Shown: one piece after another, positions 1 through 37,783 of the stretch
Layout: every line of letters begins with the position of its first letter
Numbering within the stretch: the first letter of the stretch is position 1
Source of the DNA: Clostridia bacterium
GTDB lineage: Bacteria; Bacillota; Clostridia; TANB77; CAG-508
Assembly (NCBI GenBank): GCA_022790575.1
Contig: JAAVXM010000049.1
Span: 1 to 60,863, forward strand
Reading direction: 5' to 3'
DNA length: 60,863 nucleotides
Program-made: the position numbers and the translations under genes
The notes under the pieces: model-generated
Told to the model about the DNA's origin: nothing
What the model saw: only the letters and a program-made list of their open reading frames with translations
Database searches by the model: none

Positions 1-53
1 AGTGTGACAACAAGCGCTATTAGCGTTATTCCTTTGTTTTTTCTTGTTTTCAT
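1..53 (-). CDS. pilin-like protein (prepilin-type leader plus hydrophobic N-terminal helix), 5' end only; the body runs off the left edge
   Basis: The reverse complement of 1-53 reads ATG AAA ACA AGA AAA AAC AAA GGA ATA ACG CTA ATA GCG CTT GTT GTC ACA CT, i.e. [17 protein letters not shown]. The ORFs at 21407-21781 and 36114-37613 have the same leader and helix. A GAAAGGAATGG RBS lies just upstream. Confidence 0.7.
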   Translation of the reverse strand, partial: MKTRKNKGITLIALVVT

Positions 54-151
54 CTTTATCCATTCCTTTCTCTTTATTTTTTGGCTTGTTTCTGCCAGTT
101 TATAAGGCTCAAAAAAGATGGTCCTTTTATTTTCATAATAAAATGCCTACC

Positions 152-256
152 TTATTCATCACTAATAAAGGTATTTTTACCTCTTATTATCTTTATTAAA
201 TTGTGTTTGCTAATTTTTGTATGTAAATCTAATACTTTCACAATTTTATTTGTCAT
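152..256 (-). CDS. 34-aa mini-ORF upstream of the pilin-like gene (MTNKIVKVLDLHTKISKHNLIKIIRGKNTFISDE)
   Basis: GGAGA RBS 7 nt before the ATG at 256 and TAA at 154-152. The C-terminal 11 residues are identical to the mini-ORF at 37683-37783, and the only nucleotide differences there are synonymous. Confidence 0.5.
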   Translation of the reverse strand: MTNKIVKVLDLHTKISKHNLIKIIRGKNTFISDE

Positions 257-284: not shown

Positions 285-313
285 ATTCTATATGAACAGT
301 ATAACTGTGTCAA
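285..313 (-). promoter_or_regulatory. sigma-A type promoter for the mini-ORF and pilin-like gene
   Basis: Minus strand has TTGACA (313-308), a 17-nt spacer and TAGAAT (290-285). Confidence 0.5.
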
Positions 314-16734: not shown

Positions 16735-17076
16735 TTATTTTATTTCTCCTTTTATTGTTACTTCATATCGTTTATCACTTTTTTTAAATATTATAGTATA
16801 TGGTCCTTCTCCAGTTAGTGTATAATTGTCTTGTCCAATATTCTTGTCTAATTCATTTTGTAAATTTTCTTTTGTTACTTCTCCCCACTTGTTTAGTGTC
16901 ATTGCTTCTGTTACAGCTATATTTAGCTGTTCTTTTTCGTCTCTATTCTCTGTTAACTCTTTTGCTTGCTCAGTATTATTTAATAAGTCATCTTTCCCTG
17001 ATAATGTTCTTAAACTTACTCCTGCTAATATTAATATTACTACTATTGTTACCACTAAGGCTATTAGTGTTATTCC
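16735..17076 (-). other. leaderless pilin-like module fused to the prfA 3' end
   Basis: [32 protein letters not shown]... for 114 codons. It has the same architecture as the N-terminal ~115 aa of the gene at 36114-37613. The stop abuts the pcrA ATG. Confidence 0.7.
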
Positions 17077-18132
17077 TGATGTATCATTTAGTCTTTCTGC
17101 TCTATCTGCTGCTGCTAAATTGTCAAGCATTTCATCTATGTCTCCATTTAAAAAGTTCTCCATCTGGAATATGCTCATTCCTATCCTGTGGTCTGTTATA
17201 CGTCCTTGTGGATAATTATATGTTCTTATTTTTTCACTTCTGTCTCCACTTCCTACTTGCGTTTTTCTTGCACTTGCTATTTCTGAGTCTTGCTTTTCCT
17301 TTTCTATATTATATAATCTTGAACGTAGCATTTTCATCGCATATTCTCTGTTTTGCAGTTGAGAGCGCTCTGTTTGACATTCTACTGTTATTCCTGTTGG
17401 CTCATGTATAAGTCTTACTGCTGATGATGTCTTGTTTACATGTTGCCCTCCTGCTCCTGATGCTCTGAATACTTCCATTTTTATGTCTGCTGGATTTATG
17501 TCTATTTCTACATCTTCAACTACTGGTAATACTGCTACTGTTGCTGTTGATGTATGTATTCTTCCACTACTTTCTGTGTCTGGTACTCTTTGTACTCTAT
17601 GTACTCCACTTTCAAATTTTAATCTGCTATATGCTCCTTTTCCTGTAACCATAAAAGATATTTCTTTGTATCCTCCTAATTCTGTCTCATTTTCATTTAA
17701 TATCTCTATTTTCCAGTGCTTCCTTTCTGCATACATTGAATACATTCTAAATAATGTCCCTGCAAATAATGCAGCTTCTTCTCCTCCTGCTCCTCCACGG
17801 ATTTCACATATTACGTTTTTATCGTCATTTGGGTCTTTTGGTATTAATAGTATTTTTAGTTCTTCTTCTATGTGTGGAATTTTTTCTTTTGCTTCATAAT
17901 AGTCTATTTCTGCTAATTCCTTCATCTCTGGGTCTTGCATCAACTCTTTTGCGTCTTCCATTCTTTGCTTCTCTTTTTTGTATTCTCTATATTTTTGTAC
18001 TACTTCTTCTATTGAATTATGCTCTTTTATTAATTTTTGCCATTCTGCTTGATTTGCAATTACTTCTGGGTCACTTATCATTTTTGTTAGTTCCTCATAT
18101 CTAGCTTCTACAGTTTCTAATTTATCAAACAT
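16735..18132 (-). CDS. prfA: peptide chain release factor 1 with an in-frame C-terminal pilin-like extension
   Basis: AAAGGAGA RBS before the ATG at 18132 ([15 protein letters not shown]). GGQ motif ([13 protein letters not shown]). The RF1 part is ~352 aa, and the ORF then continues without a stop into [10 protein letters not shown]... Confidence 0.85.
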
Positions 18133-18218
18133 AAATATTCTCCTTTTTTCCAATCTTTAACATTTAGTATTATACTATATTTTTTCCTCTTTTTCAATAA
18201 AAATAATATATAAATGTC

Positions 18219-21406: not shown

Positions 21407-21781
21407 CTATACTATTATCAAACTTTTTAGGAAAGGAACTGAATACATGGCAGATGTGAAACAACGAACGATAGATAGTGAAGGTGATATTAAAATAGGA
21501 ACCTGTGGTAATTCTTCAATAGTCTTAAGTGAATCTGTTTTCCTAATTATCTGTGCATCGCTTAGTATTAGTTCAAGCTTTTCTCTTGCTGCTGCTTCTC
21601 TACTATTTCTTTTTGCTTGCATTGCCTGTTTTATTATTCCATTTTCCCCTGTTAATAATGCAATACATACTCCTGCTAATATTAAAAGAACTATAAGTGT
21701 GACAACTAACGCTATCAGCGTTATTCCTCTTTTCTCTGCTACTTGTTCCTTCTTTTCTTTTACATACTTAACTTCATACAT
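21407..21781 (-). pseudogene. pilin-like gene fragment: long leader, N-terminal helix and ~70 aa, then an unrelated tail
   Basis: ...[24 protein letters not shown]...EAAAREKLELILSDAQI is homologous to 57051-58733. After ...EELPQ the reading frame becomes an odd hydrophobic tail. Confidence 0.55.
21668..21706. repeat. 39-nt block identical to 58675-58713 (encodes VVTLIVLLILAGV)
   Basis: TACTCCTGCTAATATTAAAAGAACTATAAGTGTGACAAC occurs at both sites. The window's first 11 nt match its 3' part. Confidence 0.8.
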
Positions 21782-22174: not shown

Positions 22175-24229
22175 TTAATCATCCATTGAGCCAAATAATT
22201 CATCAAATTTAGCCTCTAATTCTTTTTGTAAATCATATGAATCTTCTTCCTCTTCTTGTACCTGTGCTGGTTCTGGCTGTTTTGGTTTTTCACTGTTTAT
22301 TTGTATATCATCAAATAAGTCATCTATTCCTTTGTCCTCTTTTGGGACTTCTTTTTTAATCTCTTTAGGTTCTTCTTTTATTTTTGGTTCTACTTTTTTG
22401 TCTTCTTTCTTTTCTTCCTTTTTAGGTTCATCAAATAAGTCATCTAATGATTCAACTTTTAAATCTTGCATTTCTTTTTCTGTCTTATCTTCTGTCCATG
22501 GATTATATGGATTGAACTTTCTCCAATTACCTCTTTCTATTTCTCCTACATTATTATGACTAATCTCTGACCTTTTTAATTCATTAACCATCTTTTTATT
22601 TTTAAAGTAGTAGAATTTATTTGCTTTTACTGGCTTTATACCTTTTTCAAATATAATACATAAGTCATTATCCATTCTTCTCAACTCATCTGGTGTCATT
22701 AATGCTCTTGCCATAACTTGGTCTGATATGCTTTGTCCTGTTCTAAAATATTGTCTATCTTTATTTACTGAAATACTATTCCTGTCTATTGTCTTTTCTC
22801 CCAATGCTTTTGAGAAATATTCCACTGTTTTATATGAGTTACTTCCTAAAAATACATGTGTATCACAGTTTCCTATAATTGTTTCATATGATTTTTCATA
22901 TACTGCTTCTAATTGGTCTAGGTTTTGTAATATTACACTAAATGAAATTTTTCTACTTCTTGATGTTGATATTTTCTTATCAAAGTCTGGTACTTTTCCT
23001 ATGTTTGCAAACTCATCAAGTATAAAATATGTTGGCACTTTTAGTGCTCCTCCATTTTCATCTGCATAATTATATAATTGTTGTATCATTTGCGCAAAAA
23101 ATATTGTTAGTAAAAAGTCATATGCTGTATGTGTATCTGATGATATTACATATACTGCTGTTTTCTTGTTTCCTATTGATTCAAAATCTATTGTGTCTGT
23201 TGATGTTAATTCTGCTATTTCTTTTGAATCAAATTTTCCTAGCTTTGATTGTAGTGTACTTAATATTGAACTATATGTTTTTTCTGGCGCTATTTCTATT
23301 GATTTATAGTTCATTCTTGCTGGATGGTCATATGGAAGTTTACTGATTAATTCTGTTAACAAGTTATTTCCTCCACTAGAATTTGCTGCTCTAACTAATT
23401 CTGCACAACTTGCTAAGTTTTGTTCCTCTTCTGGTCTTGTTGCCATTAAATAATATATTAATGATTTTAATAGCATTTCTGCTGAGTCATCCCAGAATGG
23501 GTCTGACCCTCCTCCATCTGTTTTTTGACCTTTTACTATTGTGTTTGCAATTACATCTACATCTATTTCTGATGATATATGCATTAATGGATTATATCCA
23601 TCACTATTTTGTGGCTTTACTAAATTTAAGATTTTTATTTCATATCCATTTTCTTTTAAATATCCTGCTGTCTTGTCATATAATTCTCCTTTTGGGTCTG
23701 TGAATACATATGACCCTAATTGCTGAAATGCATTTGGTATTGAGTATGATGCTGATTTACCAGACCCTGACCCTCCGACTACTAATACATTTACATTTCC
23801 TCTCTTATCTGTTGGTAAATAATTATCTTCTGCTAGTATTATTCCTTTTTTATTGCTTAAAACGTGATATTGCTCTCCATTTTTACTCCAGTCACTTGAA
23901 CCATGTTCAAAGTCTGTATATTCATGCTTTGGCGCTGACCTGAATATCCCTATCATGAAAAATATAGAATATACTATTGTAAATCCTCCTAATGATTTAA
24001 AGTATGAACCAATTAATCCTTGTTTTATTATACTTAATATCCCGTTAAATGGATTTGTTAGTGCTTGCATGAATACTTGCATTCCATTTTGTGCACTTCC
24101 TTTTACCATTTCATTATATCCAAGTGTTATAGGCGCCATTAATACTATGGCTGCAAATAGCCATAGTATTACAAATATTATGAAATATTTCTTGTTCCTT
24201 CTTATAACTCCCTCTAGCTTGTAATTCAT
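22175..24229 (-). CDS. type IV secretion coupling protein, VirD4/TraG family
   Basis: Two N-terminal TM helices, Walker A VVGGSGSGKSASYSIPN, Walker B region YFILDEFANIG, and a Lys/Glu-rich tail. GAAGGTGA RBS before the ATG at 24229. Confidence 0.85.
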   Translation of the reverse strand: MNYKLEGVIRRNKKYFIIFVILWLFAAIVLMAPITLGYNEMVKGSAQNGMQVFMQALTNPFNGILSIIKQGLIGSYFKSLGGFTIVYSIFFMIGIFRSAPKHEYTDFEHGSSDWSKNGEQYHVLSNKKGIILAEDNYLPTDKRGNVNVLVVGGSGSGKSASYSIPNAFQQLGSYVFTDPKGELYDKTAGYLKENGYEIKILNLVKPQNSDGYNPLMHISSEIDVDVIANTIVKGQKTDGGGSDPFWDDSAEMLLKSLIYYLMATRPEEEQNLASCAELVRAANSSGGNNLLTELISKLPYDHPARMNYKSIEIAPEKTYSSILSTLQSKLGKFDSKEIAELTSTDTIDFESIGNKKTAVYVISSDTHTAYDFLLTIFFAQMIQQLYNYADENGGALKVPTYFILDEFANIGKVPDFDKKISTSRSRKISFSVILQNLDQLEAVYEKSYETIIGNCDTHVFLGSNSYKTVEYFSKALGEKTIDRNSISVNKDRQYFRTGQSISDQVMARALMTPDELRRMDNDLCIIFEKGIKPVKANKFYYFKNKKMVNELKRSEISHNNVGEIERGNWRKFNPYNPWTEDKTEKEMQDLKVESLDDLFDEPKKEEKKEDKKVEPKIKEEPKEIKKEVPKEDKGIDDLFDDIQINSEKPKQPEPAQVQEEEEDSYDLQKELEAKFDELFGSMDD

Positions 24230-24252
24230 TTGTATAATCACCTTCTCTTCTG

Positions 24253-36113: not shown

Positions 36114-37613
36114 TCACCAGTTCCATACATCTCCTTTTTGTCCATTTAAACCACAATACATATTTCCATAGCCTTCATAATCTACAGTATCTGGTGATGT
36201 AAGATATACTTCACTTCCATTATTTACTGTATATACATACCCTGGAGCCTTTGTTGCTCTATATTTCGCTCCCAATACATTATTTCCTACACTTGTATGG
36301 GGTACACTATTATATGAGTCTATAAACATCTCTACACTTGGACTTCCTATTACATAATTTGCTTTACTTCCATCATAATTATTTGACCATGGACGACCTA
36401 TATCACTTCCATCTTCTGGGTCACACAGCCATGCTGCTGCCTTTTCATTTGTGTCCCATCCACTTTCATTGTTCCTTCTGTTTTTTGCCCAATCAGGATT
36501 CATTTCTTTTACTTTGGTTTTACTTGTTACATAACTTGTATTTAATGATGTTGTTTTGTTTGAGGTATAATCAGCCTTTAAATATATTGTGTTTATTCCA
36601 TCTCCATATTTATTTTCTTTATCTACAAAAAATATTCTGTATGTTGCATCTCCTGTTGTATAATTTTTTACTATTTTTCCATAATATATTTCTGGATTTT
36701 TTGCTATATCTTCTGCTGATGGATTTTCTTTTATATTTACTTTTACTGTTACTTGACATGTTCCTGCAAATGTTTCCCCTTCACTATTCGTCCCTGTTAT
36801 TGTTACATTTACTGGGCTCGTTGTTGTTTCTACTCCTTTTACATTTCCTTTTGTGTTCACTGTTACCTTACTTGTATCTCCACTACTATAACTATATGTC
36901 ATATCTTCTACATTCTGTGCTGGTGTTGTCTTTACTACTATTTCCTTTGTTTCTCCTACTGATACTTCTATTGGGTCTGCACTTATTCCTGTTACTTCTG
37001 ATACTATTATTACTTCACATTCATCACTATAATTTCCTATTTTTACTGTTATTTTTGCTGTATCTCCTACATTTCCTTTTGCTGTTACATTTCCTTGATT
37101 ATCTACTGTTGCTACTGTTGTATTACTTGAACTCCATTCAATATCACCACTTGTTCCTTGTTTCTTTGTTGCTATTAATCTTTCACTTTTTCCTTTTAAT
37201 AACTTAAGTTGACTTTTATTTAATGTTATTCCTCCTTTTTCATTTTCTTTTTTCTCTATCACTTCTCCTTCTTCCGTTATTTCATATTTAACTCCTCCTT
37301 CTTCCACAATCCATGGTAATCCTCCTTCTGGTCCATTTTTTTCTATATTCGTTATTCCTGCTCCTTTTAATTCTGTATCTAATCTACTTAAATCTATTGT
37401 TCCTTCTTCATTTATTTTCGATGCTATTACTGCTAACTTTATCTTCTCTTCTATTTCTGCTTTTTTTGAATTATTTTTTGCATTTTGTGCTTGGCTTATT
37501 ATTCCATTCTCTCCTGTTAGCATTGCTATACTTGTTGCTGCTAATATCAATAATACTATAATTGTAATAACTAATGCTATTAGTGTAATTCCTCTTTCTT
37601 TTCTTATTTTCAT
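36114..37613 (-). CDS. pilin-like surface protein with Big_2 (bacterial Ig-like) domains
   Basis: AGAGGAGG RBS and ATG at 37613. [25 protein letters not shown] leader and helix. A Big_2-like segment (LNKSQLKLLKGKSERLIATKK..DIEWSSSNTTVATVDNQGNVTAKG). Ends at TGA 36116-36114. Confidence 0.8.
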   Translation of the reverse strand: MKIRKERGITLIALVITIIVLLILAATSIAMLTGENGIISQAQNAKNNSKKAEIEEKIKLAVIASKINEEGTIDLSRLDTELKGAGITNIEKNGPEGGLPWIVEEGGVKYEITEEGEVIEKKENEKGGITLNKSQLKLLKGKSERLIATKKQGTSGDIEWSSSNTTVATVDNQGNVTAKGNVGDTAKITVKIGNYSDECEVIIVSEVTGISADPIEVSVGETKEIVVKTTPAQNVEDMTYSYSSGDTSKVTVNTKGNVKGVETTTSPVNVTITGTNSEGETFAGTCQVTVKVNIKENPSAEDIAKNPEIYYGKIVKNYTTGDATYRIFFVDKENKYGDGINTIYLKADYTSNKTTSLNTSYVTSKTKVKEMNPDWAKNRRNNESGWDTNEKAAAWLCDPEDGSDIGRPWSNNYDGSKANYVIGSPSVEMFIDSYNSVPHTSVGNNVLGAKYRATKAPGYVYTVNNGSEVYLTSPDTVDYEGYGNMYCGLNGQKGDVWNW

Positions 37614-37682
37614 TTTTCCTCCTCTTTGGCATGCCAAAAAGACAGCCTATTTATTTTCAATCCATCATAAATAGCCTATCAT

Positions 37683-37783
37683 TTATTCATCACTTATAAA
37701 TGTATTTTTACCTCTTATCACTTTCACTAACTCACTTGTGTGTGTGTGTGTGTGTGTACAGCCCCAAGGGTTTTAACGTTCAT
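37683..37783 (-). other. upstream mini-ORF homologous to 152-256, currently interrupted by the frame of an (AC)10 tract
   Basis: AGGAGAG RBS and ATG at 37783 give MNVKTLGAVHTHTHTQVS-stop. Another frame gives ...SELVKVIRGKNTFISDE-stop, which matches the left-edge mini-ORF. Confidence 0.55.
37737..37757. repeat. dinucleotide microsatellite: (TG)10.5 on the plus strand, (CA)10 within the minus-strand mini-ORF
   Basis: Read directly: TGTGTGTGTGTGTGTGTGTGT. Confidence 0.95.

Follow-up and report, generated by a model that had tools for sequence, protein, structure and literature searches.

How might a perfect dinucleotide repeat, lodged in a short leader open reading frame (ORF), affect the surface-protein gene that lies behind it? 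The question is raised by a contig of 60,863 nucleotides (nt) and 28.1% GC from a Clostridia bacterium (JAAVXM010000049.1), which was analysed over its whole length and is referred to here as the window. On its minus strand, to which all mini-ORF coordinates refer, a leader mini-ORF (mini-ORF B) contains the tract (AC)10A and precedes a pilin-like Big_2 gene (gene B); together they form copy B. A paralogous arrangement, copy A, lies at the left edge of the window. The features described below suggest that the tract is probably the core of a phase-variation switch, in which the number of AC units (n) would set the frame of the leader and, by way of a terminator-like hairpin, the expression of gene B.

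An AC tract within a leader mini-ORF

Mini-ORF B opens with an ATG behind a Shine-Dalgarno (SD) sequence (Table 1) and, at the assembled n = 10, is translated as MNVKTLGAV, HTHTHT and QVS before a stop codon. The first-pass annotation, made from the DNA letters, had placed an (AC)10 tract inside this mini-ORF, led by a ribosome-binding site (RBS), before the pilin-like gene. Direct reading and Tandem Repeats Finder both agreed with this description. A repeat whose unit length is not divisible by three thus sits within an RBS-led short leader ORF, 5' of the pilin-like gene.

The earlier remark that the window has no other such run holds for dinucleotides other than TA, among which the tract is the sole run of at least five units; TA runs do occur. 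An AC run of 16 nt appeared in 0 of 100 dinucleotide-preserving shuffles. On its 5' side the repeat abuts a 15-nt motif that is an exact match to the consensus AAsCnTTGnGGCTGT, and 0.03 such matches would be expected by chance in the window.

We also considered whether the repeat could serve as a variable promoter spacer, and this candidate was rejected. The repeat lies 3' of both the RBS and the ATG, and tracts of 7–18 units correspond to spacers of 18–40 nt; given these lengths, a promoter-spacer role of the repeat is excluded. When the leader of the mini-ORF was compared with Rfam 15, nothing reached the gathering score, and the sole match of a permissive scan was a chance one (E = 0.96).

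Reading frames, hairpin and proposed mechanism

The ATG of mini-ORF B lies 26 nt from the repeat, and the stop codons of the three frames end 11, 6 and 55 nt past it. As the first-pass annotation had stated, the loss of one unit or the gain of two opens the long frame, which ends at the TAA at 37685-37683. This frame is used at n = 0 mod 3, and the assembled copy, with n = 10, is one unit out of frame, again as described earlier. The distances of 70–100 nt that had been given between the mini-ORFs and the pilin-like genes correspond to gaps of 69 nt in copy B, from the long-frame stop to the pilin-like ATG at 37613, and of 98 nt in copy A, from the stop of mini-ORF A to the ATG at 53.

Three points go beyond that annotation: a terminator-like hairpin that links the frame to expression, a nonsense codon in gene B, and the loss of the repeat and most of the hairpin in copy A. 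In copy B, the hairpin starts 2 nt past the TAA of the long frame (n = 9 or 12), as compared to stop-to-hairpin distances of 46 nt at n = 10 and 51 nt at n = 11. The region folds with a z score of -2.8, and 0 of 200 shuffles folded equally well; the hairpin alone has a free energy (dG) of -13.9 kcal/mol. Between the early stops and the pilin-like start lie about 110 nt of untranslated RNA. No promoter-like site was found between the hairpin and the pilin-like start, either in copy B or in a related locus (L014) described below, and the gene is therefore reachable by read-through only.

These features suggest a mechanism for a cassette composed of an RBS, an ATG, about eight codons, the motif and (AC)n. 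Gains and losses of AC units during replication would move the leader ORF among its three frames. With 10 or 11 units, translation would end 46–51 nt 5' of the hairpin, the hairpin would form, and transcription would stop before the pilin-like gene (OFF). With 9 or 12 units, the ribosome would reach the TAA 2 nt before the hairpin and occlude its 5' arm, and the polymerase would read through (ON). As assembled, the window locus is in the predicted OFF frame.

From the geometry of copy B and of two further bacterial loci, L014 and L009, together with the precedent of the Streptococcus gallolyticus pil1 and pil3 leaders, we infer that the same mechanism operates here: the ribosome would prevent termination and expression would follow n, with n = 0 mod 3 ON and n = 10 OFF. 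We give a probability of roughly 0.6 to the reading in which the (AC)10 tract is the hypermutable core of a leader-ORF phase-variation switch, and in which this slippage-prone switch governs the pilin-like gene by ribosome-dependent attenuation.

The same cassette in phage genomes

A scan of IMG/VR with the shared flank and the repeat returned 13 near-identical loci. With the pattern GCTGT(AC)7.5, 72 stretches were recovered; after two GC-rich chance matches had been dropped, 70 cassette loci in 36 families remained, on phage contigs of 26–35% GC. Their layout consists of an SD sequence, an ATG, 8–12 codons, the motif, (AC)7-18, a stretch of 20–120 nt, and a strong SD sequence with the start of the next gene. 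The cassette family is defined by the motif with at least seven AC units directly 3' of it, an RBS-led ATG 26–40 nt upstream of the repeat, and one long and two short frames. Copy B of the window has the motif with at least seven AC units, the ATG distance, and the long and short frames of this family.

The repeat is hypervariable in these phages. The value of n ranges from 7 to 18 and varies in 14 of the 15 families that have more than one member, and contigs whose 611+600-nt flanks are 100% identical carry n = 18/17/11, 17/16 and 14/11. Variation of n on identical flanks is the signature expected of a contingency locus. The slipped-strand ON/OFF switch proposed in the first-pass annotation thus gains support from the occurrence of the same cassette elsewhere, with hypervariable n on identical backgrounds. 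Such variation is known from the homologous cassettes, while the window locus itself provides one assembled value, n = 10. Several assemblies are interrupted at the repeat or right next to it (L009, L021, L043, L046, L056, L091 and L093).

The downstream genes and the frames point to the output of the phage cassettes. In L019, the cassette is flanked by a minor-tail-like gene and a tail-like gene of 143 codons; a Peptidase_S74 tail fibre precedes it, and a holin and an endolysin follow. Other downstream phage genes resemble tail fibres or receptor-binding proteins, to judge by the look of their sequences. In 52 of the 57 phage loci with enough flank, the stop of the longest frame overlaps or abuts the start codon (ATGA, TAATG etc.) of an ORF of at least 50 codons, and the remaining two frames mostly end within a few codons of the repeat. 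About one third of the phage contigs (20/57) are in the long frame.

The SD sequence of the downstream phage gene pairs with the gene's own first codons in all six families tested (z scores of -2.7 to -4.5), for example GAGGUGUU with GAUACCUC; the arms differ among families yet stay complementary (L016-L091). These features point to translational coupling as the phage output, in which only ribosomes in the long frame would open the SD hairpin and reinitiate. The start-codon overlap of the phage type is absent from the window, where the 69-nt gap with the hairpin intervenes. The long frame corresponds to n = 0 mod 3 in all three contexts examined, that is, window copy B, L014 and the L016-type phage family, while the residue of n that opens the long frame differs across the other phage families.

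These distributions bear on an alternative in which the length of the tract, rather than the frame, is what acts, through Z-DNA, a CA-rich translational enhancer or spacing, the frame of the mini-ORF being incidental. Alternating purine-pyrimidine tracts can adopt Z-DNA, and CA multimers can boost translation. The conservation of the flanking motif as nucleotides, not as peptide, would agree with such a role. We consider it very improbable, given that the stop of one specific frame overlaps or abuts the next start in the 52 of 57 phage loci, and that one specific frame ends at the hairpin in three bacterial loci, which is hard to explain without translation. In addition, the repeat lies outside any promoter spacer, being 3' of the RBS and the ATG. 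A switch acting through the frame of the leader is retained as the preferred reading.

Tracts that are very short or interrupted were also found, with n = 4 in L108 and L112, and ACACACACACGCAC in L109. Like copy A of the window, these seem to be variants that can no longer leave one state. Among the motif occurrences in IMG/VR, 50 of 55 have at least seven AC units, and a few have four units or an interrupted tract. The cassette phages had no DNA match to cultured relatives; a weak protein match to Clostridium phage CS266P3 was seen, and the repeat is absent there. No pilin-like genes were found in IMG/VR, and similar GC content is the only link between the cassette phages and the lineage of the window.

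A conserved nucleotide motif

Among 35 family representatives, at positions unforced by the query, AA at -15/-14 is present in 35/35, C at -12 in 32, TTG at -10 to -8 in 34 and G at -6 in 28. The frame that the ATG defines over the motif differs by family, giving ..SLGAVHT.., ..RCGCTH.. or ..ALRLYTH... Because the families read it in three frames, the motif is conserved at the nucleotide level. Formation of an RNA hairpin by the motif is unlikely, as its candidate pairs show no covariation; pairing of the motif with the downstream anti-SD sequence was rejected as well, being inconsistent among families on inspection.

The motif might work as a nucleotide sequence, for instance through programmed slippage or the binding of a factor. 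Joined to this is a broader and still tentative proposal, in which the motif and (AC)n would form a phase-variation cassette that is portable and passes between low-GC gut Clostridia and the phages that infect them. Its output would take two forms: ribosome-dependent antitermination before bacterial pilin-like genes, and translational coupling onto hairpin-locked starts before phage tail-fibre or receptor-binding genes. Under this proposal, one device would randomise both sides of the phage-host surface interaction.

The first-pass annotation had instead taken the resemblance between the two window copies as a sign of a translated peptide under selection. Its statement that the last 11 codons give identical residues with two synonymous differences applies to a 36-nt block common to 152-187 and 37683-37718, the sole such pair in the window, in which both differences fall on third positions. 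Over the 17 codons past the tract, copies A and B differ at 12 nt, distributed 4/1/7 over codon positions 1/2/3. This split leans weakly to coding and, with p about 0.1, is not significant alone.

The mini-ORF might on these grounds encode a functional small protein under purifying selection, whose production is switched by the repeat; the shared residues of the last 11 codons, the conservative V/I exchanges upstream and the 4/1/7 split are all of the kind that it would leave. The searches speak strongly the other way. A concatenated query found no relatives of the mini-ORF peptides in a collection of 5.8 billion proteins. Back-translated RGKNTFISDE gave 0 matches in the GTDB representatives (185,579 species genomes), 0 in IMG/VR, and one out-of-frame chance match, in a response-regulator gene, in the JGI metagenomes. 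Relatives of IRGKNTFISDE beyond the two window copies were likewise absent from these three collections. The first-pass annotation had itself named a lack of homologues beyond the two copies as an outcome that would refute its idea, and none was found. The mini-ORF has no Pfam match, and the sequence after the repeat is unrelated across the cassette family. What is conserved is the nucleotide motif, read in all three frames, and a selected small protein appears most improbable.

Bacterial relatives of the cassette

Bacterial loci were retrieved by similarity of the pilin-like protein, independently of the mini-ORF. One of them, L014, comes from a sheep-rectum Clostridia metagenome-assembled genome (MAG), and its pilin-like protein is 26% identical to that of the window. 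Upstream of the gene, ATG AAA AAC GCT GAA AGC CTT GCG GCT GTA is followed by (AC)9, so that the mini-ORF reads MKNAESLAAV(HT)3... in the long frame. The stretch CCTTG[C/G]GGCTGT, 5' of the repeat, is common to L014 and the window. The sole promoter-like site of this locus, TTGAAT-17-TACAAT, lies 5' of the mini-ORF. The long frame closes with GCA AAG TAA, codons that form part of the 5' arm of a strong terminator hairpin (dG -24.5, z -4.8), while the short frames stop 49 and 35 nt before it.

The second relative, L009, belongs to a rabbit-gut Clostridia MAG and carries (AG)13 at the contig edge (1-26), about 140 nt before its pilin-like gene. Here too a strong terminator follows (dG -17.6, z -4.0), and of the three frames one ends 29 nt short of the hairpin, another 3 nt short of it, and the last within the loop. 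In this locus another dinucleotide may thus serve the same kind of switch.

Orthologs of the L014 gene were found on three further contigs. One of these (L093) begins 27 nt after the repeat, and the other two (L094 and L095) are disrupted by a serine-recombinase element. In these two contigs (L094 1-1100, L095 1-300), which come from two other samples, the element interrupts the pilin-like gene in the part that encodes the hydrophobic N-terminus, and a large serine recombinase (Recombinase, Zn_ribbon_recom) lies at its end. The conserved pilin 5' sequence may be the attachment site of this element.

The terminators of L014 and L009 bear on how the frame would be sensed. Rather than by ribosomes blocking an intrinsic terminator, the frame could act because a leader left untranslated by an early stop is open to Rho-dependent polarity or to mRNA decay. 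The early stops of copy B leave about 110 nt of RNA untranslated and the window hairpin is only a moderate terminator, both of which suit this explanation, and Rho is reported to mediate the flgB phase switch of Clostridioides difficile (PMC7446863). We regard it as improbable, given that in both L014 and L009 a textbook intrinsic terminator is placed precisely where the long frame stops. On direct reading the window leader is A/U-rich and C-poor, and would therefore be a poor Rho-utilization (rut) site. Ribosome-dependent attenuation at the hairpin is accordingly the form of the switch that we prefer.

No repeat was found upstream of the pilin-like genes of P0016, P0021, P0127, P0185 and L003-L005, and in repeat-less pilin-like loci the upstream sequence is identical across 10 contigs from different samples. 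Distant pilin-like genes without the AC cassette (L003, L005 and L030-L032) share the palindrome TTATTAAGTTTAT(T/A)ACTTAATAA within the upstream 150 nt. In L030 and L032, which encode the same protein, the upstream A run is A8 and A9, respectively. The palindrome and the A run may represent a different regulatory or phase-variable device.

State of the two window copies

Gene B contains two Big_2 domains (8e-14). Its prepilin-like start, RG/ITLIALVITI, has the Gly at -1 and the hydrophobic helix, with Ala in place of Glu at +5, and scores 15.9 bits against the Pfam N_methyl cut-off of 21.2. Relatives of the gene are named 'type II secretion system protein' or 'pseudopilin PulG' in the source databases. 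The nearest are about 60% identical, with at least six paralogs in one Clostridia MAG (HFJ55).

The gene ends at a TGA (36114-36116) that stands where all aligned relatives carry Trp (..YYWWLASPSS..). Reading of this TGA as Trp under an alternative code was rejected: TGA terminates several ordinary genes of the window, and the codon is therefore a nonsense mutation rather than a recoded one. The 49 codons past it are still open, which favours a nonsense mutation of very recent origin, a variant within the population or an error of sequencing over long decay.

In copy A, the uninterrupted 34-codon ORF behind TTGACA-17-TAGAAT was found as the first-pass annotation had described it. The motif is degraded, with no match even at one mismatch. 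Having lost the repeat, the motif and most of the hairpin, copy A resembles a fossil that is fixed in the long frame.

Several observations weigh against the proposed switch. The region 5' of mini-ORF B yielded no convincing promoter, and a consensus terminator scan did not call the copy B hairpin, which is AU-rich with a 12-nt loop. The weak hairpin of copy A (dG -5.4) gives no help. With bacterial loci retrieved by way of the pilin-like protein, the examples number only three (window copy B, L014 and L009), one of them with a different repeat. Most of the pilin-like paralogs and orthologs examined are without the cassette, which is therefore not general to the pilin-like gene family. Finally, the nonsense codon at a conserved Trp truncates gene B, and the switch may therefore no longer matter in this genome.

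The main rival explanation starts from such observations. Copy B would be a decaying relic, that is, a once-functional cassette, possibly derived from phage exchange, which is now non-functional before a pseudogene and whose frame is without consequence. The TGG-to-TGA change at the conserved Trp, with TGA a genuine stop here, fits this view, as do the out-of-frame assembly of copy B and the lack of a clear promoter before its mini-ORF. In copy A, the repeat, motif and hairpin are all degenerate, which indicates that such cassettes decay here, and the copy B locus may be decaying as well. A relic would, however, have kept its tract perfect over 10.5 units, its motif exact to the family consensus, its long frame and hairpin intact, and the 49 codons past the TGA open in frame. 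We therefore regard the relic as rather unlikely, and the slippage-prone attenuation switch remains the reading that we favour for copy B.

Other pilin-like genes and features of the window

The prepilin-like N-terminus GITLIALV occurs four times in the window, in whole genes or gene fragments. Besides genes A and B, a gene for peptide chain release factor 1 (PCRF and RF-1 domains; 16735-18153, minus strand) continues in frame into a pilin-like segment at about residue 359. Fusion of two genes or a rearrangement could account for this, as could a misjoined assembly at the pilin 5' sequence, which is repeated. Another pilin-like gene, the third and a short one of 124 codons (21407-21781, minus strand), has no repeat upstream and lies just downstream of a gene for a type IV secretion coupling protein (T4SS-DNA_transf, TraG-D_C; 22175-24241, minus strand). 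This part of the contig may belong to a conjugative element.

Many MAGs have pilin-like genes at contig ends, as at the left edge of the window, as would be expected if the family is present in many copies and short-read assemblies break at its conserved 5' sequence. The sole contig that shares the neighbouring desulfoferrodoxin gene stops 9 nt beyond that gene.

Table 1. Features of copies A and B in the 60,863-nt window
Feature	Position	Strand	Remarks
AGGAGAG Shine-Dalgarno of leader mini-ORF B	37796-37790	-	6 nt 5' of ATG 37783; direct reading
Leader mini-ORF B as assembled (n = 10), MNVKTLGAVHTHTHTQVS then TAG 37729-37727	37783-37727	-	short frame, predicted OFF
Motif AACCCTTGGGGCTGT (consensus AAsCnTTGnGGCTGT)	37758-37772	-	abuts repeat on 5' side; exact match
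(AC)10A tract, plus-strand TG run	37737-37757	-	10.5 copies, 100% matches (Tandem Repeats Finder)
TGA stop for n = 2 mod 3 (e.g. 11 units)	37734-37732	-	second short frame
Long-frame continuation SELVKVIRGKNTFISDE, TAA 37685-37683, at n = 0 mod 3 (9 or 12)	37683-37736	-	
Terminator-like hairpin, 13 bp with one mismatch and 12-nt loop (37680-37641), and U5 (37640-37636)	37636-37680	-	
GAGGAGG Shine-Dalgarno of pilin-like gene B	37618-37624	-	direct reading
Pilin-like Big_2 gene B, 499 codons	36114-37613	-	ends at in-frame TGA replacing conserved Trp
In-frame continuation past TGA (LASPSC...ISPLISLKSDFKVQIER), 49 codons	35964-36113	-	matches C-terminus of relatives
Promoter-like TTGACA-17-TAGAAT 5' of mini-ORF A	285-313	-	11/12 matches
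Mini-ORF A, uninterrupted 34 codons, MTNKIVKVLDLHTKISKHNLIKIIRGKNTFISDE	152-256	-	
Degenerate repeat remnant in copy A, ACATACAAAAATTAGCAAACACAA	201-224	-	slippage no longer likely; alignment with copy B
Weak degenerate hairpin and T-run 3' of mini-ORF A	111-151	-	dG -5.4 kcal/mol, z -0.86, not significant
Start of pilin-like gene A, running off left edge of contig	1-53	-	ATG 53

Comparison with known systems

In classical contingency loci the repeat is part of the gene that it regulates and lies in the 5' coding region, as with CT in Helicobacter pylori outer-membrane genes and CTCTT in Neisseria opa. The likeness to the window lies in slipped-strand mispairing that shifts a frame and toggles a surface protein. 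The window repeat differs in its position within a separate upstream mini-ORF; since it lies outside the regulated gene, the frame would be passed on indirectly, via a terminator or translational coupling.

Hypermutable tracts are also known from phages, namely polyG in receptor-binding genes of Campylobacter phages and homopolymer contingency loci in T2/T4 (PMC12633550). The 2025 preprint on coliphage homopolymer contingency loci reports that simple sequence repeats are under-represented in the tail-fibre genes of these phages (PMC12633550). As in the cassette phages, slippage-prone repeats vary the expression of a host-interaction gene. Those tracts lie inside the coding sequence, whereas the cassette is an (AC)n leader mini-ORF that ends on the start of a tail-fibre-like gene with a hairpin-locked SD sequence. 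The literature searched gave no account of a leader cassette built on AC repeats, of the motif or of phages that use it. If our reading is correct, many low-GC phages would stochastically switch tail-fibre-like genes with the same cassette, which bears on host range, on the design of phage therapy and on the interpretation of metagenome assemblies broken at such loci.

Within the Clostridia, the cwpV and flgB loci of Clostridioides difficile are reported to be controlled by invertible DNA elements in the 5' untranslated region that act after transcription initiation (PMC4737114, PMC7446863). The likeness lies in phase variation of a surface structure via premature termination in the leader. 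The difference is that these switches use site-specific inversion by a recombinase, with no translation of a leader ORF, in place of repeat slippage. The pyrBI and trp leaders of E. coli share the translational step, in that a ribosome translating up to the terminator hairpin blocks its folding and permits read-through (PMC3894217). There, metabolite supply sets the position of the ribosome, whereas in the window it would be set by a heritable, reversible change of frame in the DNA.

The closest precedent is provided by pil1 and pil3 of Streptococcus gallolyticus. Leader translation that stops at least 28 nt before the terminator gives low pilus expression (Danne et al. 2014, PMC3894217), while expression is high, by ribosome-mediated antitermination, when the stop falls in the hairpin or immediately ahead of it, as was shown experimentally (PMC3894217). 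Between the leader and the surface-appendage gene these operons have an intrinsic terminator, where the window has its terminator-like hairpin, and the 46–51 nt versus 2 nt geometry of the window fits the rule of at least 28 nt.

The two are otherwise distinct. The window repeat is AC in about 10 copies, as compared to the pentanucleotide GCAGA in about 22 copies in pil1, and neither the repeats nor their flanks show sequence similarity; the window element is an analogue, not a homologue. The gene downstream encodes a prepilin-like Big_2 protein rather than heading a sortase-assembled pilus operon, and the host is an uncultured gut Clostridia lineage of 28% GC. The window-type cassette also has the conserved 15-nt flanking motif, common to phages in which the output appears translational. 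The pil1 system has been demonstrated experimentally, whereas that of the window is predicted from sequence.

Within the literature searched, a mechanism that combines a leader-ORF repeat with attenuation has been demonstrated only for pil1 and pil3 of this one streptococcal species. For the window itself the implication is more modest, with a predicted OFF frame and a truncated gene behind it. If the proposed switch is correct, the compact cassette of motif and AC repeat becomes searchable genome-wide, and the principle of leader-repeat attenuation known from S. gallolyticus would extend to uncultured gut Clostridia.

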